A stretch of 32,664 bases of DNA from Syntrophaceae bacterium (lineage in GTDB: Bacteria > Desulfobacterota > Syntrophia > Syntrophales > UBA2185): assembly GCA_003508565.1 (NCBI GenBank), contig DNUI01000085.1:1-32664 (forward strand). Direction: 5' to 3'. Of the stretch, positions 13,591 through 24,353 are shown piece after piece (position 1 is the first letter of the stretch; each line of letters starts with the position of its first letter). A model generated the notes under the pieces. That model did no database searches. It saw only the letters and a program-made list of their open reading frames with translations, and was not told the DNA's origin. The position numbers were made by a program, and so were the translations under genes.

Positions 13591-13606
13591 CGCAAGGTGC
13601 GTGCCA
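13591..13606 (-). promoter_or_regulatory. sigma-54 (-24/-12) promoter of the NifX-like/TauE/VKOR-DsbA/rhodanese operon
   Basis: The minus strand reads GTGGCACGCACCTTGCGAT, a near-perfect TGGCACG-N4-TTGC. It lies about 50 nt upstream of ATG 13540. Confidence 0.8.
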
Positions 13607-13830: not shown

Positions 13831-13851
13831 ATAGTTGACATATACAACTAT
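13831..13851. promoter_or_regulatory. inverted repeat ATAGTTG-N7-CAACTAT, candidate MarR operator overlapping a TTGACA -35 box
   Basis: ATAGTTGACATATACAACTAT lies 44 nt upstream of the marR-type ATG. It contains the GTTGAC half-site that recurs at 14381..14408. Confidence 0.45.
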
Positions 13852-13894
13852 ATATGAAAGAAAGGCGTCACCAATTTCCAAGGAGGATGGATTA

Positions 13895-14347
13895 ATGGAC
13901 GAACAGGCCAGGCAGCTTGCCGGGAGCATTGAAAAAATTATGTATTATTTTGGTACGCAAAGCATGGAGGGAGAGTGTTGTGAAAATATTTCTCTCGGCG
14001 AATTTTTTGCCCTTCGCGCCGTATTGCATCGGAATATCTGTACCATGCAGGATATTGCAAAAAGCGCCGTGGTCACTAAAAGCGGTGCGACCCGCATTGT
14101 CAGTCGTCTGGAGGATAAGGGTCTCGCGCATCGCGAACAGGACCAGAAAGATGGGAGGATCTGTTGTGTGACGTTGACGGATGACGGCAAATCGCTCCTG
14201 AATCGTATCGAGGATCAACTCATGAATAAGATACAGACGATGCTGGTGGCGATGGACCCGGACATGCGCGAAATTCTGATGATTACCCTTCATGCATTTT
14301 GTCAGTCCGCAGACCGACAAATGACAAAATGGGAGAAACTGTCCTAA
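13895..14347 (+). CDS. MarR family transcriptional regulator
   Basis: Winged-helix core ICTMQDIAKSAVVTKSGATRIVSRLEDKGLAHREQDQKDGR. ATG 13895 is 7 nt after AAGGAGGA; the track start TTG 13835 lies in the promoter region. Confidence 0.9.
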   Translation: MDEQARQLAGSIEKIMYYFGTQSMEGECCENISLGEFFALRAVLHRNICTMQDIAKSAVVTKSGATRIVSRLEDKGLAHREQDQKDGRICCVTLTDDGKSLLNRIEDQLMNKIQTMLVAMDPDMREILMITLHAFCQSADRQMTKWEKLS

Positions 14348-14380
14348 ACGGATGGGCTTATTCAACGATAGATTCAGTCA

Positions 14381-14408
14381 GTCAACAAATGTTGAAATAG
14401 TCAACTAT
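14381..14408. promoter_or_regulatory. array of alternating GTCAAC/GTTGA half-sites, candidate second MarR operator
   Basis: GTCAACAAATGTTGAAATAGTCAACTAT contains the palindromes TCAACA-AA-TGTTGA and ATAGT-CA-ACTAT. It lies about 100 nt upstream of the permease start. Confidence 0.4.
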
Positions 14409-14505
14409 CATTACATAAACCAAATGAACTGCCTCGCTGCAAGGAGCGAAGTATTGTCTCTCGAAGAAATAGAGACCTCATTTAGAAGCATAGGAGGACT
14501 TACAG

Positions 14506-15618
14506 GTGTTTCAAATGAATAATTTTGTCACTGCCGGTCAATTTTTTATAGTGATTGCCGGGGAACTGATTCTGATTTTTGTGGCCGTTTCCTTTCTCAT
14601 CGGGGTCCTGACGGAATATCTCCCTCCATCCCGCATCAGGGATTTTCTTTCCAACAAGATTACGTCGGTACAATACCTGTTGGGTGCTGGCTTGGGCGCC
14701 CTCACGCCTTTCTGCTCTTGTTCAACCGTTCCTATCACGGCAGGGTTGCTAAAGGGCGGCGTACCATTTGGCCCGATTATGGCGTTCCTTTTTTCTTCAC
14801 CAGTTCTCAATCCTGTAATTATTGCTCTTTTGCTCTCGCTCCTGGGTCTTAAAGTGACGATGGCTTATGTCGTCATTACCTTTTTTGGTTCCATGGTAAC
14901 GGCGGCTCTCCTGTCGAAACTCGGAATGGAAGGACAGGTCAAGCCCTTGATGAATTTTCAGGCAGCCTGTTGCGCGGAAGAGAAAACAAAGCCTGATGTC
15001 GGCCTCGTGATGATCCAGCCGGCTGCCACCGGCTGTTGTTCTAATGAAAGTGCTCAACCTCAGAAGTTGTCTACCTTGCCCACCTATCAAGCTCCGAGCG
15101 CCTGCGGCGCGGGGGGAGCAGAGATGATGCTTGCAAAGCTACCGGCTGAAGCGTCATGCTGCACTGTCAATTTTGATGCGAAAGACTCGGCATATGTACC
15201 TTTTAAAGAAAAGATGAAAAACGCAGCGTCGTCAGCACTTGACACGTTCAAGGGGGTGTTCTGGTATCTGCTTTTGGGAGCAGGGATCGGCGCTTTCATC
15301 TACGGATTTTTCCCGCAGGATCTGTTTGTTAGATTGGCAGGACCGGGCAATTCATGGTCTATTCCTATTGCGGCGGCCATCGGCGTACCAATGTATATCA
15401 GGGCGGAAACGGTGATTCCCATCAGTGCCGCCCTTGTGGGAAAGGGTATGGGGGTGGGAACGGTGCTCGCCCTCATCATCGGCGGTGCCGGGGCAAGTAT
15501 TCCAGAGATGATCATTCTTGGTTCCATGTTCAGGAAGAAACTGATCGCCGCTTTTATACTGAACGTTTTTCTGGTCGCAATTGCGGCAGGGTATATTGTG
15601 GATAAACTGATATATTAA
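14506..15618 (+). CDS. ArsP-family (PF03773-like, 'predicted permease') transporter with Cys-rich central loop
   Basis: Family motif LTPFCSCSTVPITAGLLKGG. The central loop carries three vicinal Cys pairs (ACCAEE, TGCCSNE, ASCCTV) plus ACGAGG. GTG start 7 nt after TAGGAGGA. Confidence 0.85.
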   Translation: MFQMNNFVTAGQFFIVIAGELILIFVAVSFLIGVLTEYLPPSRIRDFLSNKITSVQYLLGAGLGALTPFCSCSTVPITAGLLKGGVPFGPIMAFLFSSPVLNPVIIALLLSLLGLKVTMAYVVITFFGSMVTAALLSKLGMEGQVKPLMNFQAACCAEEKTKPDVGLVMIQPAATGCCSNESAQPQKLSTLPTYQAPSACGAGGAEMMLAKLPAEASCCTVNFDAKDSAYVPFKEKMKNAASSALDTFKGVFWYLLLGAGIGAFIYGFFPQDLFVRLAGPGNSWSIPIAAAIGVPMYIRAETVIPISAALVGKGMGVGTVLALIIGGAGASIPEMIILGSMFRKKLIAAFILNVFLVAIAAGYIVDKLIY

Positions 15619-15684: not shown

Positions 15685-17070
15685 CTATTGCTTAAGGAGT
15701 TTCCTGCTTTTCCTCCATAGTGTCGTGCGGCTGATGCCGAGCTGACGGGCCGTTTTCATGCGGTGGCCGCCTTGCTCTCTAAGCGCCTCCTGGATAAGCT
15801 TCAGTTCCGAAGACACCAAGGGTGTAGGTGTTGAAGAATTCGTGAAATCATGGTTCGTCTTTTCGAGAAAATCGTAGGGTAGGTGCTTTTCTTCAATCAG
15901 CACCCCCCTGCACAGGACACAGGCATGTTCCAGGATATTTTCCAGTTCCCGGATGTTGCCGGGAAACGAATAATTCATGAGGCGGGCCATTACTTCTGTG
16001 GAAACCCCCGCAATATGTTTGCCTTTGAGCGCTTTCAGGCGAGCGATAAAGTTTTCCGTCAGAAGGGGAATGTCTTCTTTCCGTTCGCAGAGTGGCGGAA
16101 TCTCGATCTTAATAATGTTGAGGCGGTAGTAAAGATCCTCACGGAAAAGGCCGTCCCGGACCATTGCGGTTATATCTCTATGGGTGGCCGCCATGATACG
16201 TACGTCGACCTTTACGGGCTCAACTCCGCCTAATGGAATGAATATTTTCTCCTCCAGAACCCGCAAAAACTTGACCTGGAGAGAGGGAGAGGTATCACCG
16301 ATTTCGTCGAGAAAAAGAGTTCCACCATCAGCCAGAGAGAATCGACCAGGCTTGTTCTTCTTCGCATCCGTAAAGGCCCCCTGGACGTAACCGAACAGTT
16401 CCGATTCCAGAAGGGTGTCAGGAATGGAACCGCAATTGACCTTGATGAAGGGTCTTTCTTTCCGCGGGCTCAGATCATGGACCGCCCGGGCCAAGAGACC
16501 CTTTCCCGAACCGCTGGGCCCCTGGATCAGGAGGGTGCTGTCGCTTTCAGCCACGTCTGGCAGGATGTCAAAAATCTCTTGCATTCGTGGATTTTTGCTG
16601 ATCATGTCCCCCATACTGTAACGGCCCGCGACAGCCTTCCGGAGTGTCTCAATCATCGACAAATCGCGGAAGATCTCGACAGCGCCGACAACATCGCCCC
16701 GATGGTTGCGGATAAGAGCTGTGGTGACATTGACGGCAATCTCCTTTCCCGACTGGTTGATAATAACCGCGGGGTGATTGAACACCGGCTCGCCTGTCCT
16801 CAGAGTTCGCTCGAGGGGACAGTTGCTCTGGCAGGTATTGGAACGGAGAATGTCGAAGCAAAATTGGTTCACTGCTTCTTGAAAAGTGAATCCCGTGATC
16901 TCTTCAGCGGCCCGGTTAAAATATGTGTTGATCCGACGTTGAAGATCCACTGTAAAGACGCCGTCCGTCATGCTCTCCAAAATGGCGCAGCAAGGCAAGC
17001 TATCATCACTGCTTCGGCATGATGAGGTGTTTACAGAACCGGCATCATTTTTACTGCTTTTCCTTTTCAT
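15685..17070 (-). CDS. sigma-54-dependent transcriptional activator (bEBP) with N-terminal PAS sensor and C-terminal Fis-type HTH
   Basis: AAA+ core with Walker A GPSGSGKG, the sigma-54 contact loop GAFTDA and ESELFGY. C-terminal HTH TARQLGISRTTLWRK. There is no receiver domain; the PAS region carries Cys residues. Confidence 0.95.
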   Translation of the reverse strand: MKRKSSKNDAGSVNTSSCRSSDDSLPCCAILESMTDGVFTVDLQRRINTYFNRAAEEITGFTFQEAVNQFCFDILRSNTCQSNCPLERTLRTGEPVFNHPAVIINQSGKEIAVNVTTALIRNHRGDVVGAVEIFRDLSMIETLRKAVAGRYSMGDMISKNPRMQEIFDILPDVAESDSTLLIQGPSGSGKGLLARAVHDLSPRKERPFIKVNCGSIPDTLLESELFGYVQGAFTDAKKNKPGRFSLADGGTLFLDEIGDTSPSLQVKFLRVLEEKIFIPLGGVEPVKVDVRIMAATHRDITAMVRDGLFREDLYYRLNIIKIEIPPLCERKEDIPLLTENFIARLKALKGKHIAGVSTEVMARLMNYSFPGNIRELENILEHACVLCRGVLIEEKHLPYDFLEKTNHDFTNSSTPTPLVSSELKLIQEALREQGGHRMKTARQLGISRTTLWRKSRKLLKQ

Positions 17071-17108: not shown

Positions 17109-17885
17109 CTATCCTTTCAACTTACTATACAGCCCCTGAAGTTTTGTTTGATACATGTTTCGGATGTTTTCCTCTTCCTCGCCAAGGGGTTTCACGGGGA
17201 TGAGATCCATGACATCGCTGGGGGACATGTTGGAATCGGTCATGGTTTTGAGCGTACCCTTCATCATTTTTAACAGGCTTTCTTTCACTTCATCCGGTGA
17301 CATCCCGAAGGTCTTTCCCAGTTCCTGCAACTCATAGAGCTGGAACCAGAAGTAGGTAGGCCCCATGGCGGTCAAGATAGCATACGCTTCAAGTTTTTCT
17401 TCCGCCACTTCGGGGCAGTCTCCCAGAATCTTGAACCATGACAGCATTTGTTTCTTTTCTTCCTTTGCAAATATGGCGGAGAATACGAGAGGATTGTACC
17501 CTTTATTCACCATTGATGGTGCGTTGGGAATCATCCGGACTATTCGTGAAAATCCGTCGAGGGCATTGGAAATCTTGGAGATGGAAACTTTCGGGGCCAG
17601 GGAAACGACAACCGCATCCCGGCGGAGCGTTGATTTTATTTCTCCCAGAATTCCCATGATCACCGGTGGATGGAGGGCAATAAAAACCACGTCGGCAGCA
17701 GCTGGTTTTTTAAGATCGCCTCCTGCCGCTTCAATTTTTGGGAATCGCTTTTGCAGATCTTTCAGAACATCGGCATTGGCGTCGCTGACAAACACCTTGC
17801 CGGGCCATTTCTTTTTTCGTTCCAACCCACTCAGAATGATCCTGGAGATCCTTCCGCCACCGATAAAACCGATGGATTTAAACAT
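17109..17885 (-). CDS. pyrroline-5-carboxylate reductase family NAD(P)H oxidoreductase
   Basis: Rossmann motif IGFIGGGRISR, MIPNAPSMVNKG (compare ProC MPNTP) and LTAMGPTYFW (compare GSGPAY). It diverges from housekeeping ProC at the C-terminus. Confidence 0.65.
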   Translation of the reverse strand: MFKSIGFIGGGRISRIILSGLERKKKWPGKVFVSDANADVLKDLQKRFPKIEAAGGDLKKPAAADVVFIALHPPVIMGILGEIKSTLRRDAVVVSLAPKVSISKISNALDGFSRIVRMIPNAPSMVNKGYNPLVFSAIFAKEEKKQMLSWFKILGDCPEVAEEKLEAYAILTAMGPTYFWFQLYELQELGKTFGMSPDEVKESLLKMMKGTLKTMTDSNMSPSDVMDLIPVKPLGEEEENIRNMYQTKLQGLYSKLKG

Positions 17886-17951
17886 GCGAACAAGCCTCCT
17901 TCCTTAATGTATTATGTTTTTTTACTTATCACCGAGGGGTCGTTACACTCA

Positions 17952-18659
17952 TTAGTTACCCCAAAAAGGATTCCCGATGAAGTAGATACCTAAAACAGCG
18001 ATGAGCGCCCCGGCGCCCTTGCGGAACCACAAACCCGCGCCCTGCCATGTCCGGTTTTCGATCAGTTTTCTCACCATGGCCGTTGAACTGCCCGCAATCA
18101 CGATAGGAAGGCAGTGCCCGAAGGCAAACAGCGTAATGAAAAGGATGCCCAGCCCTACCTTCTCCTGAATTGTAATAATGGCCAGAATGGGCGCGATGAA
18201 ACCGAACGTGCAGGAGCCGGACAGCACACCGTACGACAGGCCCAGTCCAAAGGCGCCCCAGAGCCCCCGCAGGTTAAGACGGTAGAGAAGGCTGCCGGAA
18301 GCGGAACATGCTTCGACCCCCATCATGCCTAATGCGACCCAGAGAAGGATCAGCCCTACCAGTATCTGCCAGTAATTCCCCACGTCGCCCAGCATCCGTC
18401 CCAGAATGACACACACGATGCCGACCAGCGCAATGGTAATAAAAAGTCCAAAGGTAAACGCAACGGAGTAGGCGCTGGCCTGCCGGGGTTCCAGTATCTG
18501 TTCCTGTCCACCCACATAGGCGACTATGAGGGGGATGGATGCAAGATGACAGGGACTGAACAGGACGCTGACCACGCCCCACAGAAAACACCCGAGGGCG
18601 GCCAGGATTGCTGCACCCATCATCCATTCGTTGATTGTCAAAAAGAAAGAATCGAACAT
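17952..18659 (-). CDS. ccdA: CcdA/DsbD-type transmembrane thiol:disulfide electron transporter
   Basis: Six TMs with the two conserved Cys contexts FSPCHLASIPL and SGSCTFGFIAPIL. ATG 18659 is preceded by GAGGGTGG; the track start is GTG 18668. Confidence 0.85.
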   Translation of the reverse strand: MFDSFFLTINEWMMGAAILAALGCFLWGVVSVLFSPCHLASIPLIVAYVGGQEQILEPRQASAYSVAFTFGLFITIALVGIVCVILGRMLGDVGNYWQILVGLILLWVALGMMGVEACSASGSLLYRLNLRGLWGAFGLGLSYGVLSGSCTFGFIAPILAIITIQEKVGLGILFITLFAFGHCLPIVIAGSSTAMVRKLIENRTWQGAGLWFRKGAGALIAVLGIYFIGNPFWGN

Positions 18660-18671
18660 TATATCCACCCT

Positions 18672-19058
18672 CTACTGTACGCCCATCGTCTTGAGCTGGG
18701 CCACAATAGCCTCCTCGCTCATATACCCGATGTGGCGGCTGATTTCCCTGCCTTTTTTGTCGAAAAAGATCTGCGTAGGAATAGCCCTGACTTGGAATTG
18801 CTGTATGGCTTCCCGGTTATATCGGAGGTCGATAAAAACAATAGCGGCCTTTCCCTGGTAGCGCTTCTCTAATCTGTCCAGGATCGGCGCCATCATCTTG
18901 CAGGGAATGCAGGAGGCGGCGCCCAGGTCGACCATGGTCACCATGCCCTTGACGGGGACCTTTTTATACTCTGTGGAAGACGACGTACAAGCCGCATTGA
19001 CGAAAAAAAAGATTGTAAAGATCAATGTACCGATTAGTGTAATACGCTTTATGCTCAT
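18672..19058 (-). CDS. exported/lipid-anchored thioredoxin-family protein (CIPC)
   Basis: Signal peptide ends FVNAAC. Thioredoxin active site GAASCIPCKMMAP and cis-Pro region RAIPTQIFF. It sits immediately upstream of ccdA. Confidence 0.85.
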   Translation of the reverse strand: MSIKRITLIGTLIFTIFFFVNAACTSSSTEYKKVPVKGMVTMVDLGAASCIPCKMMAPILDRLEKRYQGKAAIVFIDLRYNREAIQQFQVRAIPTQIFFDKKGREISRHIGYMSEEAIVAQLKTMGVQ

Positions 19059-19065
19059 AAATACC

Positions 19066-19377
19066 TCAACAATCGCAAGAACCTTCGCAGCCCGCGCTCG
19101 CCTTAAGGCTCGAGGTGAGTTTAAATCCAGATCCTCCGACAGACTCGATGAAATCGACGCGTATCGGCTTTACTTCATCGAACAAAGACTTGTCAATAAG
19201 ATAATGGATGTCTCTATCCGTGAATACCAGATCTTTTTCCTGTGGCTCGTCCAGAGCCATGCCCAGAGTGGGCCCGCCTCAACCAGCCTGCAAGAGTATC
19301 CTGATTGAAAGTGGTTCTTTCTGTTTTTCCAAAAAGTTCTTGATCATGCTGCTTGCATTTTCTGTAACTTCAAACAT
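19066..19377 (-). CDS. HesB/IscA-like selenoprotein (in-frame UGA = Sec at codon 33, 19279..19281)
   Basis: The ORF track shows only the 3' 64 codons. Extending upstream gives MFEVTENASSMIKNFLEKQKEPLSIRILLQAG-U-GGPTLGMALDEPQEKD... with RBS AGGAG 7 nt before ATG 19377. The U occupies the position of the first conserved Cys of IscA (R-x-x-x-x-GC-S/G-G). The C-terminal C-x3-C-x-C stands in for the IscA CGC. Confidence 0.8.
19240..19266 (-). promoter_or_regulatory. candidate bacterial SECIS hairpin
   Basis: On the RNA, 12 nt after the UGA: CUG-GGCA-U-GGCUC-UGGAC-GAGCC-A-CAG. This gives a 6-bp upper stem, a GG-containing 5-nt apical loop about 28 nt from the UGA, and a 3-bp lower stem. Folded by eye only. 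Confidence 0.5.
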
Positions 19378-19391
19378 AAATTCTCCTGTCT

Positions 19392-20672
19392 TTAATTTTT
19401 TAATCTTTCGATTAGCGTCTCCAGATATCGCGATTTCATCTGGCGGCTTGCCATCACCTGCTTGATAGGTGGCAACTTCAGGATGACGCCGAGTATTGCC
19501 GCCATCGCCCGGTGGCTCATAAGCAGTCTGTTGTCGAAGATCAGATTTTGCAGTTTTCCCCGTTCTATAGCCATGACAACTGCCCGATGGGTAGAATTGA
19601 GTGGTGTGATCACGCGTTTCGGCCTGGATTCAAGCCGGATCGCCTCGGCCGGACATTTACGAACACAGAGGCCGCAGCCGAGGCATATTTCCTCATTCAA
19701 TTTTGCCTTCTCCCGCTTTGGCAGGTGTGGATCACTCGCCGAGGCGAGGCCTATAGCCTCTACGGGACAGACCCTAACACAGCGGCCACAACCGGTACAT
19801 TCATCATCATTGACCTTGGGCAAAAAATTTGTCGTATGCACCGGATGCAGCATGCCGAAACGGCGGGCGGCGATCATGGCCTCACAGCAACAACCGCAGC
19901 AATTGCAGATGAAGTTGACCCGTTGCAGAACGTTTTCGCCAAATTGAACGAGGTTGTTTTCATAGGCCTGTCTTAGCAGATCAAGTCCCTCGGAAACGTC
20001 AATGGCGCGTGCAAATCCATGCCGGATCAGGGATGCGCCTGCATTGTTAAAGGTCATGCAGATGTCCATGGGCGCGTCGCAGGCCCGGCCGACATGCATC
20101 ATTTTGTGACGGCAGTAACACACACCGATCCCCCGGTGGGAGGCTGTGCGAATCACCTCGCTTGCCCTTTCGTAGTCGAGAACATGAAGGGCGTTCTCGG
20201 CACTCAGTGCCGGCTCGTGGATGAAAACACGTCCAAGCTGGGTCTCTCCATCAGTAAAGAGGGATTTGATGAAGTCTTCTTCAACGTTAATGTATTCGTA
20301 AAACAGTTCGCTTAACGCCTTCTGATTGATGTCGTCGCGAATTCGCATCAATGAGAACTCAAAAAACCCTGCCATGGGCGGCGGGAGGACGTACATCATT
20401 TCTCCTTCCTCTTGCATATCGAGGAGAAGCGCCTTGTCGGCAAGACGATCCAGGGTTTTTCGGGCATCTACCAGGGGGATTTTCCAGATCGCAGCGGCTT
20501 TCTTAGCGGTAAAAGGTTTGATCGGCAGCACAGAAACAAGGGCAGCTTCTCTTTCCGTGAAGAGGATGCTGAGAATTTTCTTGAGATGTGCCGACGGAGT
20601 TACACCCTGGGGAAAGCGGTTCAATCGCTCCGTCAACTCGGCATATCCGGATTTCAATGAATGGTGGGCCAT
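19392..20672 (-). CDS. Fe-S protein: N-terminal winged-helix-like region, CNCCGCCC cysteine cluster, 2x[4Fe-4S] ferredoxin domain
   Basis: FICNCCGCCCEAM, then CTGCGRCVRVCP and CLGCGLCVRKCP. ATG 20672 is preceded by GAGGAG; the track start is GTG 20684. Confidence 0.8.
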   Translation of the reverse strand: MAHHSLKSGYAELTERLNRFPQGVTPSAHLKKILSILFTEREAALVSVLPIKPFTAKKAAAIWKIPLVDARKTLDRLADKALLLDMQEEGEMMYVLPPPMAGFFEFSLMRIRDDINQKALSELFYEYINVEEDFIKSLFTDGETQLGRVFIHEPALSAENALHVLDYERASEVIRTASHRGIGVCYCRHKMMHVGRACDAPMDICMTFNNAGASLIRHGFARAIDVSEGLDLLRQAYENNLVQFGENVLQRVNFICNCCGCCCEAMIAARRFGMLHPVHTTNFLPKVNDDECTGCGRCVRVCPVEAIGLASASDPHLPKREKAKLNEEICLGCGLCVRKCPAEAIRLESRPKRVITPLNSTHRAVVMAIERGKLQNLIFDNRLLMSHRAMAAILGVILKLPPIKQVMASRQMKSRYLETLIERLKN

Positions 20673-20711
20673 ATCACTCCTCACCGAGGGGCTGTTTCAC
20701 CGCGTTACAAC

Positions 20712-21767
20712 TCACGTTTCCGCCGGGAATAATTTCCTTTTAAAAAGAAGGGCCACGTTGACCAGGATGATCAGGACCGGGACTTCAATCAGCGGCCCAA
20801 TGACCGTCGCGAAAGCCTGGCCAGAGTCTATGCCATAGATAGCAATGGCCACGGCAATGGCCAGCTCAAAATCGTTGCTCCCGGCAGTGAATGATACTGC
20901 AGTAGTCTGCGCGTAATTTGCACCCATCTTCCTCACAAAAAAGAATGTCATGAACCACATCACCGCAAAATACAGAGTAAGGGGTATGCCCACGATCAGG
21001 ACATCAAGAGGCGATTCAATGATCTTGTTTCCCTGGCTTGAGAACATCACGACAATTGTAAACAGAAGCGCGATCAGCGTAATGGGACTTATCTTCGGCA
21101 TGAATACTGTATCGAACCATTCTTCGCCTTTGGCATAGATGAGGGTATAGCGGGTGATGAGGCCCGCAAGGAAGGGAATTCCGAGATAGATAAAAACGGT
21201 TTTGGCCGATTCCGCCATAGAGACATTGATGTTGAGGTCTTTCGCAAGTCCAAGCCAGTTCAGGGCAAGGGTGATGAACACATAGATATAGACGGCGTAA
21301 AAAAGAACCTGGGCGATGGCGTTGAGGGCTACAAGGCCTACGGCGAATTCCCTGTCCCCACCGGCAAGTTCATTCCAGACGATAACCATGGCAATGCACC
21401 GGGCGAGCCCCACAAGAATGACGCCGATCATATATTCCGGGTAGTTCTGCAAAAAGATGACGGCCAGAACAAACATGACCACCGGGCCGATCACCCAGTT
21501 CTGCACAAGGGATACGGTCAGCAATGGTTTGTTGTTGAAAACTTTCCCTATTTTCTCATACTTCACCCGTGCAAGGGGAGGGTACATCATCAAAATCAGC
21601 CCGATAGCTATGGGAATGGATGTAGTACCGACCTGCAAGCCTATGATGAAATCTGATATTCCGGGAAGAAAATAACCGATAGCGATTCCCGCGCCGATGG
21701 CCAGGAATATCCACAACGTTAAGAAGCGATCCAGAAACGACAACTGTTTTATAATGCCATCCGACAT
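20712..21767 (-). CDS. acr3: ACR3-family arsenite efflux transporter
   Basis: 351 aa and about 10 TMs. Hallmark [19 protein letters not shown] contains the conserved essential Cys. N-terminus is [13 protein letters not shown]. Confidence 0.95.
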
Positions 21768-22069: not shown

Positions 22070-23242
22070 TTAATCCACCAGCCAGCCATAGCCCATTCCC
22101 GCGACCGTGGACAAAGCAATAACAATGATGCAGTAAACGGCGGTTTTTCTGATGCCCATAATCCCCGCAATGGTAATCATGCTGGGGAGCGACAAAGCTG
22201 GACCTGCGAGAAGCAATGCCAGGGCTGGCCCCTGACCCATGCCGGAACCGATGAGCCCCTGGAGGATGGGAACCTCTGTCAGGGTGGCAAAATACATGAG
22301 GGCACCGGATAGCGAGGCAAAGAGATTTGCCCAGAGAGAATTCCCCCCGACCAGGGATGCAATAATCTGTTCGGGAATGAGAGCGGGATAACCGGGACGG
22401 CCAAGGAGAAAACCGGCCACCAGCACGCCGCCAAGAAGCAAAGGGAATATCTGTTTCGTGAAGCCCCATGTCGCCTCCACCCATTCCCTCAGTTCATCCT
22501 TTGCAAACCAGAATTTAAGCACGATGGCCAGCACTCCCAGTAGAGCCGCCGTTAGATACCATTTGATGGAAAAGATCGTTTTCCAGAGAAAGGCATCTCC
22601 GTCGGCTGGTTTGGCGAAGGCGGCAAAGACAAGAATTAGAATTAAGGTCAGCATGAGTGACGCGTCCTGCCAGAGGGCCCGTGATTTTTCTCCCTCTTCG
22701 GGAATGTAAATCTGCCCTTCCGTCCGGTTCGCATCATCTTTTCGATAGATAACCGCCATCAGCAATCCTGCGACAATTGCAAAGACGACAGCGCCCACGG
22801 CGCGGGCGAGGCCGAGCTTCCAACCGAGAACCTTGGCAGTCAGCAGGATGGCAAGGACGTTGATGGCCGGGCCGGAGTAGAGAAATGCCGTTGCCGGGCC
22901 GATGCCGGCCCCGCGCATATAGATTCCGGCAAACAGAGGCAAAACAGTGCATGAACAGACGGCCAAAACCGTGCCGGACACAGAGGCCACAGAATAGGAG
23001 AGAATCTTGTTGGCCTTAGCGCCGAAATACTTGAGGACCGATGCCTGGGAGACAAAGACAGCGATGGCCCCGGCAATGAAAAACGCGGGAATGAGACACG
23101 TGAGGACATGCTCCCGGGCATATTCCTGCAGCATCATGAAGGATTCGAGGCCGGATTGGCGAATGACGGCATGATCCCACGGGATGAAATACGCCGCTGA
23201 GAACACCGCTACGATCAGTGCAAGTTTAGTCCATTCTTTCAT
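22070..23242 (-). CDS. ArsP-family (PF03773-like) permease
   Basis: The motif VSGTVLAVCSCTVLPLFAGIYMRGAG parallels the FCSCST motif of 14506..15618. It has about 10 TMs and sits between arsR and the thioredoxin-like gene. Confidence 0.85.
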   Translation of the reverse strand: MKEWTKLALIVAVFSAAYFIPWDHAVIRQSGLESFMMLQEYAREHVLTCLIPAFFIAGAIAVFVSQASVLKYFGAKANKILSYSVASVSGTVLAVCSCTVLPLFAGIYMRGAGIGPATAFLYSGPAINVLAILLTAKVLGWKLGLARAVGAVVFAIVAGLLMAVIYRKDDANRTEGQIYIPEEGEKSRALWQDASLMLTLILILVFAAFAKPADGDAFLWKTIFSIKWYLTAALLGVLAIVLKFWFAKDELREWVEATWGFTKQIFPLLLGGVLVAGFLLGRPGYPALIPEQIIASLVGGNSLWANLFASLSGALMYFATLTEVPILQGLIGSGMGQGPALALLLAGPALSLPSMITIAGIMGIRKTAVYCIIVIALSTVAGMGYGWLVD

Positions 23243-23288: not shown

Positions 23289-23633
23289 TCAAGATTTTTT
23301 GCATATCTTCTCACGTGTAATTTCCGAAAGTTTTTTCACGATCGCTCTTACTTCCGTATCATCGGAAAGCCAGTATCTCAGGTTTCCCATGAGTGTGGCC
23401 GCATAGGGGCTTGTGCCGTCAGCAAGATAGTAATTGACCCACAATCCTTCTTTTCTACGGTTTACGAGACCCGCATGTTCCAATATTTTCAAGTGTTTCG
23501 ACACCGTAGGCTGAGCGATCCCAAGAGCGGCCTGGATTTCACAGACGCACAGCTCTTTTTGCTGCAGGATTTTTAGGAGTTTCACACGATTTGGATCGGA
23601 AAGTGCCTTCATGACTTTAATGAATTGCTTCAT
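23289..23633 (-). CDS. arsR: ArsR/SmtB family metalloregulator
   Basis: ELCVCEIQAALGIAQPTVSKHLKILEHAGLV, a CVC metalloid-binding motif followed by the HTH. ATG 23633 is 9 nt after GAGGA; the track start TTG 23648 lies in the operator. Confidence 0.9.
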   Translation of the reverse strand: MKQFIKVMKALSDPNRVKLLKILQQKELCVCEIQAALGIAQPTVSKHLKILEHAGLVNRRKEGLWVNYYLADGTSPYAATLMGNLRYWLSDDTEVRAIVKKLSEITREKICKKS

Positions 23634-23646
23634 AGATATTATCCTC

Positions 23647-23694
23647 AACTATATTTCTATTGAGAAATATAGTTACCGACATTACTGATGTCAA
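23647..23694 (-). promoter_or_regulatory. sigma-70 promoter (TTGACA-N17-TATATT) with overlapping 12-bp perfect inverted repeat operator
   Basis: On the minus strand, TTGACA (23694..23689), a 17-nt spacer, then TATATT (23671..23666). The palindrome AACTATATTTCT-ATTG-AGAAATATAGTT (23647..23674) covers the -10 box. Confidence 0.65.
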
Positions 23695-23927: not shown

Positions 23928-24353
23928 ATGGAGTTGGGCAAGGAACTCCCTCACGGCCCCGTCCTTTTTTATAATGAACTGGTAATAGACCACTGTACAA
24001 ATCCCCGGAATGTCGGTGAAATAGCTGATGCCGATGGGTATGCTCACATCTGTGATCCCTCCTGCGGTGATAACATGAAATTATGGATTAAGGTGACTTC
24101 GGGCATAATCGCCGATATTAAATTCCTGTCCTCCGGCTGCGCCGGCGCTCTTGCAACCAGCAGCATGACGACCGTGCTGGCCAAAGGCAAAACCGTAGAA
24201 GAAGCGAAAAGGATAACCGACGCCGATGTTATTCTTGCCCTTGAGGGAGTTCCCGGACACCCTGGAAACTGTGTTCTTTCCGGTACTGCCGCATTACTCG
24301 AAGCCATCAGAGACTATGAGCGGAAGAACGACAGGAAAGGCAAGAGTGCGTGA
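23928..24353 (+). CDS. IscU/NifU-N-terminal-like Fe-S cluster scaffold protein
   Basis: VIDHCTNPRNVG and the three scaffold Cys contexts SCGDNM, SSGCAGA and HPGNCVLS. RBS GAGGAG. Confidence 0.8.
   Translation: MELGKELPHGPVLFYNELVIDHCTNPRNVGEIADADGYAHICDPSCGDNMKLWIKVTSGIIADIKFLSSGCAGALATSSMTTVLAKGKTVEEAKRITDADVILALEGVPGHPGNCVLSGTAALLEAIRDYERKNDRKGKSA

Follow-up and report, generated by a model that had tools for sequence, protein, structure and literature searches.

The stretch of DNA considered here (in the following, the window) comprises 32,664 nt of one contig (DNUI01000085.1, assembly GCA_003508565.1) of an 82%-complete, 2.25-Mb metagenome-assembled genome (MAG) of a Syntrophaceae bacterium, whose relatives are named Syntrophaceae, Smithella or Syntrophales. 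On the minus strand, from position 23648 to 15685, ten genes run in one direction, beginning with arsR and ending with the gene of a PAS/sigma-54 activator, an enhancer-binding protein (bEBP). Our subject is a string of five genes within this series, encoding a multi-cluster Fe-S protein (FeS), an IscA/HesB-type selenoprotein with an in-frame selenocysteine (Sec) codon (HesB-Sec), an exported thioredoxin (Trx), the membrane protein CcdA and a paralogue of pyrroline-5-carboxylate (P5C) reductase (ProC-like). The gaps inside the string, read directly, are 14, 7, 12 and 66 nt; FeS starts 39 nt past the end of acr3, and the bEBP gene starts 38 nt past the ProC-like gene. An initial annotation, made from the sequence alone, had already described this packing and both flanking genes, which are found as described, and its gene identities are confirmed by family profiles. 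Its interpretation was a complete chain that carries reducing power from NAD(P)H to the periplasm. We arrive at a different reading. The five genes probably constitute the distal half of one ArsR-headed arsenic-resistance operon, possibly running into the bEBP gene, and would form a mosaic rather than one pathway.

The nine genes from arsR to the ProC-like gene are co-directional with gaps of 7 to 66 nt, and the sequence that comes closest to a sigma-70-like promoter in this region is located just upstream of arsR (Table 1). No terminator-like sites were found on the minus strand between genes, and no sigma-54 promoter match is present inside the string. The likely order of the operon is arsR, arsP, arsE-like, acr3, FeS, hesB(Sec), trx, ccdA, proC-like.

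The comparison with other genomes was anchored on the ProC-like gene, with up to 10 kb fetched per side at 35 Syntrophales loci. Orthologues (47-79% identical) are found in 36 of 151 Syntrophales genomes, and a 301-genome sample of the phylum yields five ProC-like matches, three of them outside Syntrophales. Genes of ars type occur within 10 kb of the ProC-like gene at 32 of the 35 loci. Within 6 kb, the neighbours are Trx3/ArsE (25 loci), Acr3 (21), CcdA (20), exported Trx (19), ArsP (17), ArsR (16), ArsC (10), a glutaredoxin-like selenoprotein (GrxSec, 5), FeS-like proteins (4) and HesB-Sec (2). Only one of the four FeS-like matches is a close homologue (L169, 83%). The recurrent order is arsR-arsP-arsE-acr3-(UXX-star GrxSec)-trx-ccdA-(arsC)-proC-like. 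A shorter form without CcdA, arsR-arsP-arsE-proC-like, also exists, the ProC-like gene being without CcdA at 15 of the 35 loci, and CcdA-Trx is also found without HesB-Sec. As the comparison shows, trx, ccdA and the ProC-like gene are regular accessory genes of Syntrophales ars operons, and FeS and hesB(Sec) are additions that joined the operon in one shallow clade, with GrxSec lost later in the window.

Table 1. Features of the ars region of the window (positions count from the first letter of the window).
Feature	Position	Strand	Basis or remark
arsR	23289-23648	-	operon head
ArsP-family permease	22070-23242	-	domain match
ArsE-like thioredoxin-fold protein, 77 aa	21783-22016	-	PF13192; TIGR00412 'MTH895/ArsE' 95.6 bits
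acr3	20712-21767	-	TIGR00832 442 bits
Deletion scar, 3' tail CGGTGAAACAGCCCCTCGGTGAGGAGT of UXX-star Grx-like selenoprotein gene	20673-20711	-	relatives carry the full gene
FeS, 426-aa multi-cluster Fe-S protein	19392-20672	-	Fer4 dicluster, Cys motifs
hesB(Sec), IscA/HesB selenoprotein, 103 aa	19066-19377	-	NF038090, in-frame TGA
SECIS-like mini-hairpin GGCUC-UGGAC-GAGCC	19244-19258	-	alifold consensus
trx, exported or membrane-anchored thioredoxin	18672-19058	-	PF00085, signal-like N-terminus
ccdA, DsbD transmembrane family	17952-18659	-	PF02683
proC-like, P5C-reductase-superfamily paralogue	17109-17885	-	TIGR00112, below cut-off
PAS/sigma-54 enhancer-binding protein (bEBP)	15685-17070	-	domain match
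Sigma-70-like promoter match TTGACA-17-TATATT, 11/12	23666-23694	-	upstream of arsR; consensus match only

The full order is found only in very close relatives, namely L202/L203 (FeS 88% identical) and G009/L056, extra genes included. The metagenome contigs L202/L203 read arsR-arsP-arsE-acr3-GrxSec-FeS-hesB-trx-ccdA-proC-like-bEBP, followed by a divergent ArsP paralogue and MarR, and match the window except for GrxSec. G009 keeps this order too; it carries one more copy of thioredoxin, and its bEBP gene is preceded by a fragment of ArsC and one further gene. In G003 the ProC-like gene is missing while FeS and hesB are adjacent; G006 and G001 carry acr3-GrxSec-hesB-trx-ccdA, with FeS missing; and L168 consists of arsR-arsP-arsE-acr3-GrxSec-trx-ccdA-proC-like with neither FeS nor HesB. 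In G001, which belongs to the same genus (L057 2145-2250), all that is left of the ProC-like gene is the ribosome-binding site with the first five codons, after which the sequence is unrelated; this sister genome has recently lost the gene by deletion. Conservation of the five-gene order across genomes, which the initial annotation had suggested as a check of its reading, therefore does not extend beyond very close relatives, and the picture is that of a mosaic. We also considered whether the five genes are unrelated, separately transcribed passengers, placed side by side by chance in a variable island and sharing no arsenic function. The variation among close relatives (loss of GrxSec, of FeS or of the ProC-like gene by deletion, the additional Trx, the ArsC fragment) would suit such an explanation. 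However, dozens of genomes combine the same families with ars genes, in orders that are shuffled from case to case, which argues for functional linkage and not for hitch-hiking, and we regard chance juxtaposition as very unlikely.

The slot between acr3 and FeS or hesB holds, in the relatives, a gene with an in-frame TGA that encodes a glutaredoxin-like selenoprotein of UXX-star family 1 (NF041114, 87.7 bits with a cut-off of 72). Only the 3' tail of this gene is kept in the window, where a deletion of about 290 bp has evidently removed the rest of GrxSec. The remaining tail also carries the ribosome-binding site of FeS. GrxSec genes with a UPFC motif are located at L056 7683-7925, L058, L055, L057 and L202 5724-5966; they are split or missed by gene callers, and a 55%-identical copy is present on contig C52 of the window's genome. 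A motif GAGT(T)GTAACG...CCCCTCGGTGA occurs in exactly two copies in the 2.25-Mb genome, both on the minus strand (17929-17946 and 20681-20708), within the spacers that precede the ProC-like gene and FeS, respectively. It was considered as a regulatory element and rejected, the acr3-side copy being in part the 3' end of the deleted selenoprotein gene. The CcdA-side copy, near-identical in G001, may mark an RNA element or a joint left by recombination.

The bEBP gene directly follows the ProC-like gene in at least four assemblies (L176, L202 and L056 among them); the adjacency recurs in L202/L203, in L056 with genes inserted, and in G030. Control of the string by sigma-54 was considered and set aside, the only good match in the window (13591-13606) being in front of another operon. 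It may be that the bEBP gene shares the transcript of the ars operon and that its product controls this sigma-54 promoter, which belongs to a neighbouring thiol-oxidation operon. On the other side of the operon, a gene for a NifU/IscU-like scaffold (23928-24353, plus strand; TIGR03419 132 bits, below the cut-off of 188) is divergent from arsR and has four paralogues elsewhere in the genome.

The HesB-Sec gene scores 105.2 bits on NF038090 (IscA_HesB_Se), with a cut-off of 85. Its in-frame TGA (19279-19281) encodes U33 in the context LLQAG-U-GGP, the first ligand position of the UxGP motif. The C-terminus carries C97, C101 and C103, and all three ligand positions of the family are present. The position of the TGA is kept in 75 of 77 full-length homologues from public genomes. 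Among 41 related genomes, 36 harbor a HesB-Sec gene, nearly all with a single TGA at the same position. A mini-hairpin (GGCUC-UGGAY-GAGCC) begins 21 nt past the UGA and is conserved in an alifold consensus of 74 distinct sequences; in L075/L076 its stem changes from GGCUC/GAGCC to GACUC/GAGUC. The mini-hairpin constitutes the outer pairs of a longer local hairpin (19244-19288; dG -30.9, z -3.0). Rfam gives no bacterial SECIS match at HesB-Sec and, at gathering thresholds, no matches in the window. The genome encodes SelB (384 bits, above its cut-off). The conserved position, the conserved hairpin and the presence of selB together identify the TGA as what is evidently a genuine Sec codon and not a break, in agreement with the Sec-containing A-type scaffold of the initial annotation. 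A second HesB-Sec copy of the same genome is located on contig C88 in a TPR/pilT context and is of the housekeeping type.

HesB-like selenoproteins were described as a family in 2004-2006, with no function assigned (PMC1794560, PMC13188914), and neither of these two sources mentions a link to arsenic. For selenoproteins of metal(loid) resistance, Sec residues have been proposed as metal ligands (PMC13188914). We sorted 79 loci of the HesB-Sec family from public genomes by gene context. At 41 of them the gene is part of a housekeeping context, rdgB-hesB-(144-aa gene)-yggS-ttcA-like, and at 11 it is found beside a TPR gene and pilT-like genes. About 13 of the 79 loci lie inside ars clusters, compared to a chance expectation of about 2-3%, which we estimated for a random 20-kb stretch by assuming that a genome has approximately two ars loci. 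A maximum-likelihood tree places the ars-linked copies in at least three groups that are split by well-supported branches. HesB-Sec is located directly beside acr3 in L062, L067 and L076, directly beside arsE-arsP in L063, L075 and L116, and between marR and a Cys-rich ArsP paralogue in L073. Two divergent ars-linked copies (L073, L114) have a vicinal U-C or C-U. Given the excess over chance, the number of clades and the placement beside permeases, we read HesB-Sec as a small Sec/Cys-rich protein that appears to have been recruited repeatedly to arsenic export.

Three further observations concern these loci. The window itself encodes MarR and a Cys-rich ArsP paralogue on the plus strand (13835-15618), and a unit marR-hesB-arsP2 is found elsewhere (L073, L195, L196); as HesB-Sec occurs between or beside these two genes in other genomes, the second permease may also work with the selenoprotein. 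In a Smithellaceae MAG (L116 10001-10295) the ars-linked HesB-Sec is recovered in two tblastn pieces, and read-through ends after 42 residues. This may be a frameshifted, broken copy. The ars-linked copies in L059, L060 and L063 are 65-70% identical to that of the window and originate from MAGs labelled Syntrophomonas and Methanobacterium, which points to mis-binning or to lateral transfer of an arsenic island.

In the mechanism we propose, As(III) would release ArsR, whereupon Acr3 and ArsP/ArsE would export arsenite and organoarsenicals; ArsP and ArsE have been treated as organoarsenical resistance genes (bioRxiv 10.1101/2022.10.17.512643). HesB-Sec would be a duplicate of the housekeeping selenoprotein that resembles A-type carriers. 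By analogy with ArsD, U33 and the C-terminal Cys triad could build a high-affinity site for As(III) or trivalent organoarsenicals that buffers these compounds or hands them to the permeases; this is the mechanism that we prefer, though only tentatively. A more specific version, in which HesB-Sec acts as a selenol carrier that binds arsenite or methylarsenite at U33 and the C-terminal Cys and delivers it to Acr3 or ArsP, is somewhat unlikely. The main rival is an Fe-S carrier. According to this explanation, HesB-Sec remains an A-type carrier, and the ars-induced copy resupplies As(III)-sensitive Fe-S proteins including its neighbour FeS, similar to the way in which folE in an ars operon protects the targeted pathway. 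The protein does belong to the IscA/HesB family with its three ligand positions kept, and the housekeeping paralogues in 36 of the 41 related genomes are often near a TtcA-like PP-loop gene whose product is Fe-S-dependent. In addition, FeS and hesB are adjacent in the window, L202/L203, G003 and G009, the NifU/IscU-like gene is divergent from arsR, and folE provides a precedent for a metabolic gene in an ars operon (PMC9144182). On the other hand, most ars-linked HesB-Sec copies are found beside permease genes with no FeS gene near, and no direct evidence was found for arsenite targeting A-type carriers. Taken by itself, maintenance of Fe-S proteins is somewhat unlikely as the role of the ars-linked copy, and the data do not separate the arsenite carrier from the Fe-S carrier.

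We note several points that weigh against the assignment of HesB-Sec to arsenic export and against the operon as proposed. About 65 of the 79 HesB-Sec loci have no ars genes, and the majority context, rdgB-hesB-yggS-ttcA-like, is at least as compatible with a carrier of Fe-S clusters as with one of metalloids. The ligand pattern of the ars-linked copies is identical to that of the housekeeping copies, and there is therefore no mark of a ligand change in the sequence. The tree of the 103-aa protein is poorly resolved, with many forks open. No tRNA-Sec was found by aragorn among the 26 tRNAs of the 82%-complete MAG. Co-transcription of the operon is inferred from spacing and conserved order only. 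Finally, the operon encodes no target for its exported thioredoxin.

The thioredoxin carries an N-terminal signal or anchor sequence MSIKRITLIGTLIFTIFFFVNAAC (read directly) and the active site C50-I-P-C53 (PF00085, 52.5 bits). Its gene lies 12 nt upstream of ccdA. CcdA (PF02683, DsbD_TM, 46.5 bits with a gathering score of 27.1) has its Cys in SPC and GSC motifs (VLFSPCHL, LSGSCTFG); of two possible start codons, the ATG at 18659, which is preceded by AGGGTGG, is more likely than a GTG at 18668. The trx-ccdA pair is found at about 19 of the 35 ProC-anchored loci, and its description as a conduit of reductant from the cytoplasm to the envelope is supported. It is known that proteins of the DsbD/CcdA family are reduced by thiol-disulfide exchange with cytoplasmic thioredoxin. 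In the ars operon, CcdA would relay reducing power from the ordinary cytoplasmic thioredoxin to the exported CIPC thioredoxin, which in turn would maintain Cys on the envelope side, perhaps those of the permeases among them, in the reduced state during arsenic stress.

The chain proposed by the initial annotation, taken as a self-sufficient pathway in which NAD(P)H would reduce the ProC-like enzyme and electrons would move on by way of FeS and HesB-Sec to CcdA and the exported thioredoxin, is not borne out. The tight packing of all five genes in the window, L202/L203 and G009 would be in line with such a chain, as would the neighbourhood of the ProC-like gene and trx-ccdA at about 20 of the 35 loci. 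However, FeS and HesB-Sec are missing from nearly all loci that combine trx-ccdA with the ProC-like gene, and the ProC-like gene itself is often without CcdA, as counted above. CcdA, as far as its family is known, takes its electrons from thioredoxin by dithiol exchange, and the ProC-like protein offers no features of a donor: it has no flavin domain and a single Cys, which is kept in 29 of 34 orthologues. Nothing in the data supports the protein as a reductase of disulfides or as an electron donor to CcdA, and we consider the complete chain highly improbable.

The FeS gene starts with an ATG preceded by GAGGAG. Its product contains a Cys group CxC-x10-C-x6-C (C185/187/198/205), the contiguous cluster CNCCGCCC (C256-263) with CxCC-x3-C, two ferredoxin motifs CxxCxxCxxxCP (C292-302 and C330-340, both inside the Fer4 dicluster match of residues 285-348) and a helical extension at the C-terminus. 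The segment FICNCCGCCCEAM is present, and its Cys are invariant or near-invariant among 73 aligned homologues. Sixteen Cys, sufficient for four clusters, are invariant in this alignment, which includes two paralogues from the window's own genome. The contiguous Cys cluster and the ferredoxin motifs had been recognized initially, together with a winged-helix-like N-terminus. Residues 1-283 match nothing in Pfam, even with E values of up to 5 allowed, and a PDB sequence search with the protein matched the ferredoxin part only. AlphaFold2 models had a predicted local distance difference test (pLDDT) score of 35 from the single sequence, which is unusable, and of 61 from the 73-sequence alignment. 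The latter model has a helix-helix-helix-hairpin unit at residues 28-95, and Foldseek matches the N-terminus at domain level to MarR, TrmB and ArsR-type winged helices with E 0.01-0.05. Against the PDB, Foldseek finds no whole-protein match (template modelling score ≤0.17), but ferredoxin- and winged-helix-domain matches only. The winged helix is thus weakly supported, by the domain matches and by a unit in a mediocre model.

The FeS family comprises more than 8000 homologues, and in other genomes the gene stands alone among unrelated genes. Its conservation is unusual: members with 72-76% identity are present in a Latescibacteria MAG (72%) and in further metagenome assemblies. The two paralogues of the same genome are located at C100:27268-28374 and C199:71-1144, one beside hypA/hypB and the other beside a MacAB-like ABC efflux system. 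Since homologues elsewhere stand alone in unrelated surroundings, the gene must be a recent, local and lineage-specific insertion in the ars operon.

The ProC-like protein scores 109.3 bits on TIGR00112 and remains below the cut-off of 196.75. It keeps the Rossmann motif GFIGGGR of the GxGxxG fold (PF03807, E 1.1e-10) and the dimerisation domain. The SPGGTT loop of the P5C reductase 3TRI aligns to KPLGEE, within PVKPLGEEE; this loop is known from PYCR1 structures to bind the substrate carboxylate. SPGGTT is absent from all 34 orthologues, nearly all of which have PV(K/R)P(L/I)GE(E/D)E and two PVTPLKHEE. A better proC fragment is located elsewhere in the genome (C231, 137.7 bits over the first 154 positions). 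The score below cut-off, the replaced loop and this fragment together indicate that the protein is evidently not a plain ProC, as the initial annotation had also assumed in assigning it to an oxidoreductase of the ProC family. At E<=1e-40 the subfamily is large, with 5865 protein clusters; JGI calls them 'pyrroline-5-carboxylate reductase', whereas the NCBI name goes no further than 'NAD(P)-binding domain-containing protein'.

An ordinary or arsenic-tolerant P5C reductase isozyme, which would secure proline synthesis, is suggested by the best PDB and NCBIfam matches, all of them to P5C reductases, as well as by the shared Rossmann motif and dimerisation domain. The low score, the loop replaced in 34 orthologues, the better fragment on C231 and the noncommittal NCBI name of the relatives speak against such an isozyme, which we consider most improbable. 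Instead, we propose that the ProC-like protein would use NAD(P)H to reduce an arsenic-related or arsenic-sensitive metabolite in a substrate pocket that differs from that of ProC. With folE, a metabolic gene has been described inside an ars operon before (PMC9144182). Considering that it behaves as an arsenic-operon gene at the 35 Syntrophales loci, the subfamily is a candidate for a new ars determinant.

Should HesB-Sec indeed carry arsenite, this would be the first function for a selenoprotein family that has been an orphan for 20 years, and it would provide a chaperone for Acr3-type pumps; to our knowledge, a chaperone is known so far only for pumps of the ArsA/ArsB type (ArsD). The HesB-like family is among the most widespread bacterial selenoproteins, and a link to arsenic can now be tested for the first time. 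For syntrophic anaerobes, as found in digesters and arsenic-bearing aquifers, the comparison suggests that thiol and selenol proteins form a common pool from which the ars operons are put together. In the literature searched, nothing relevant ties selenoproteins to acr3, and no paper deals with pyrroline-5-carboxylate reductase together with acr3 and arsR. Likewise not found there were a putative ars-specific subfamily of P5C-reductase-like proteins, HesB-like and UXX-star selenoproteins as repeated occupants of the same slot, and the uncharacterised, presumably four-cluster Fe-S protein.

With respect to known systems, the operon follows the general plan of ars operons described before and is mosaic in its make-up. 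A 2010 paper described CcdA and thioredoxin in ars operons, arsC being present in 7 of 8, and proposed an arsenate-reductase system. The window shares with these operons the ArsR head, an ArsP-family permease, a PF13192 protein, acr3, thioredoxin and CcdA, all co-directional. It differs in that the operon is without arsC and the thioredoxin is exported; ArsC has no match in the window, and one LMW-PTP-type match is located on another contig (C63). None of the operons in the 2010 paper is described with a selenoprotein, a multi-cluster Fe-S protein or a ProC-like gene. The six-helix CcdA with two membrane Cys and the exported CxxC thioredoxin resemble the CcdA-ResA/CcmG/TlpA pathway of cytochrome c maturation, whereas the pair in the window belongs to an ars operon, and genes for cytochrome c maturation are absent from its vicinity. 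The ProC-like protein shares the Rossmann and dimerisation domains with ProC (TIGR00112; PDB 3GT0, 3TRI, PYCR1) at 20-30% identity; unlike ProC, it falls below the cut-off, has SPGGTT replaced and is found in the context of ars operons and not of proline synthesis.

A comparison with ArsD is an analogy of working principle only: HesB-Sec, like ArsD, would be a small cytoplasmic protein with a site of three chalcogens, encoded beside an arsenite pump. HesB-Sec is not a member of the ArsD family. It has the fold of an A-type carrier in contrast to a thioredoxin-like fold, and its partner would be Acr3 or ArsP instead of the ArsA ATPase. With the HesB-like family (NF038090, TIGR01911; Zhang et al. 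2006, PMC1794560), HesB-Sec shares the UxGP motif with Sec as first ligand, the C-terminal Cys pair and a host that is an anaerobic organism of deltaproteobacterial type. Unlike the family as published, the copy in the window is an accessory paralogue inside an ars operon.

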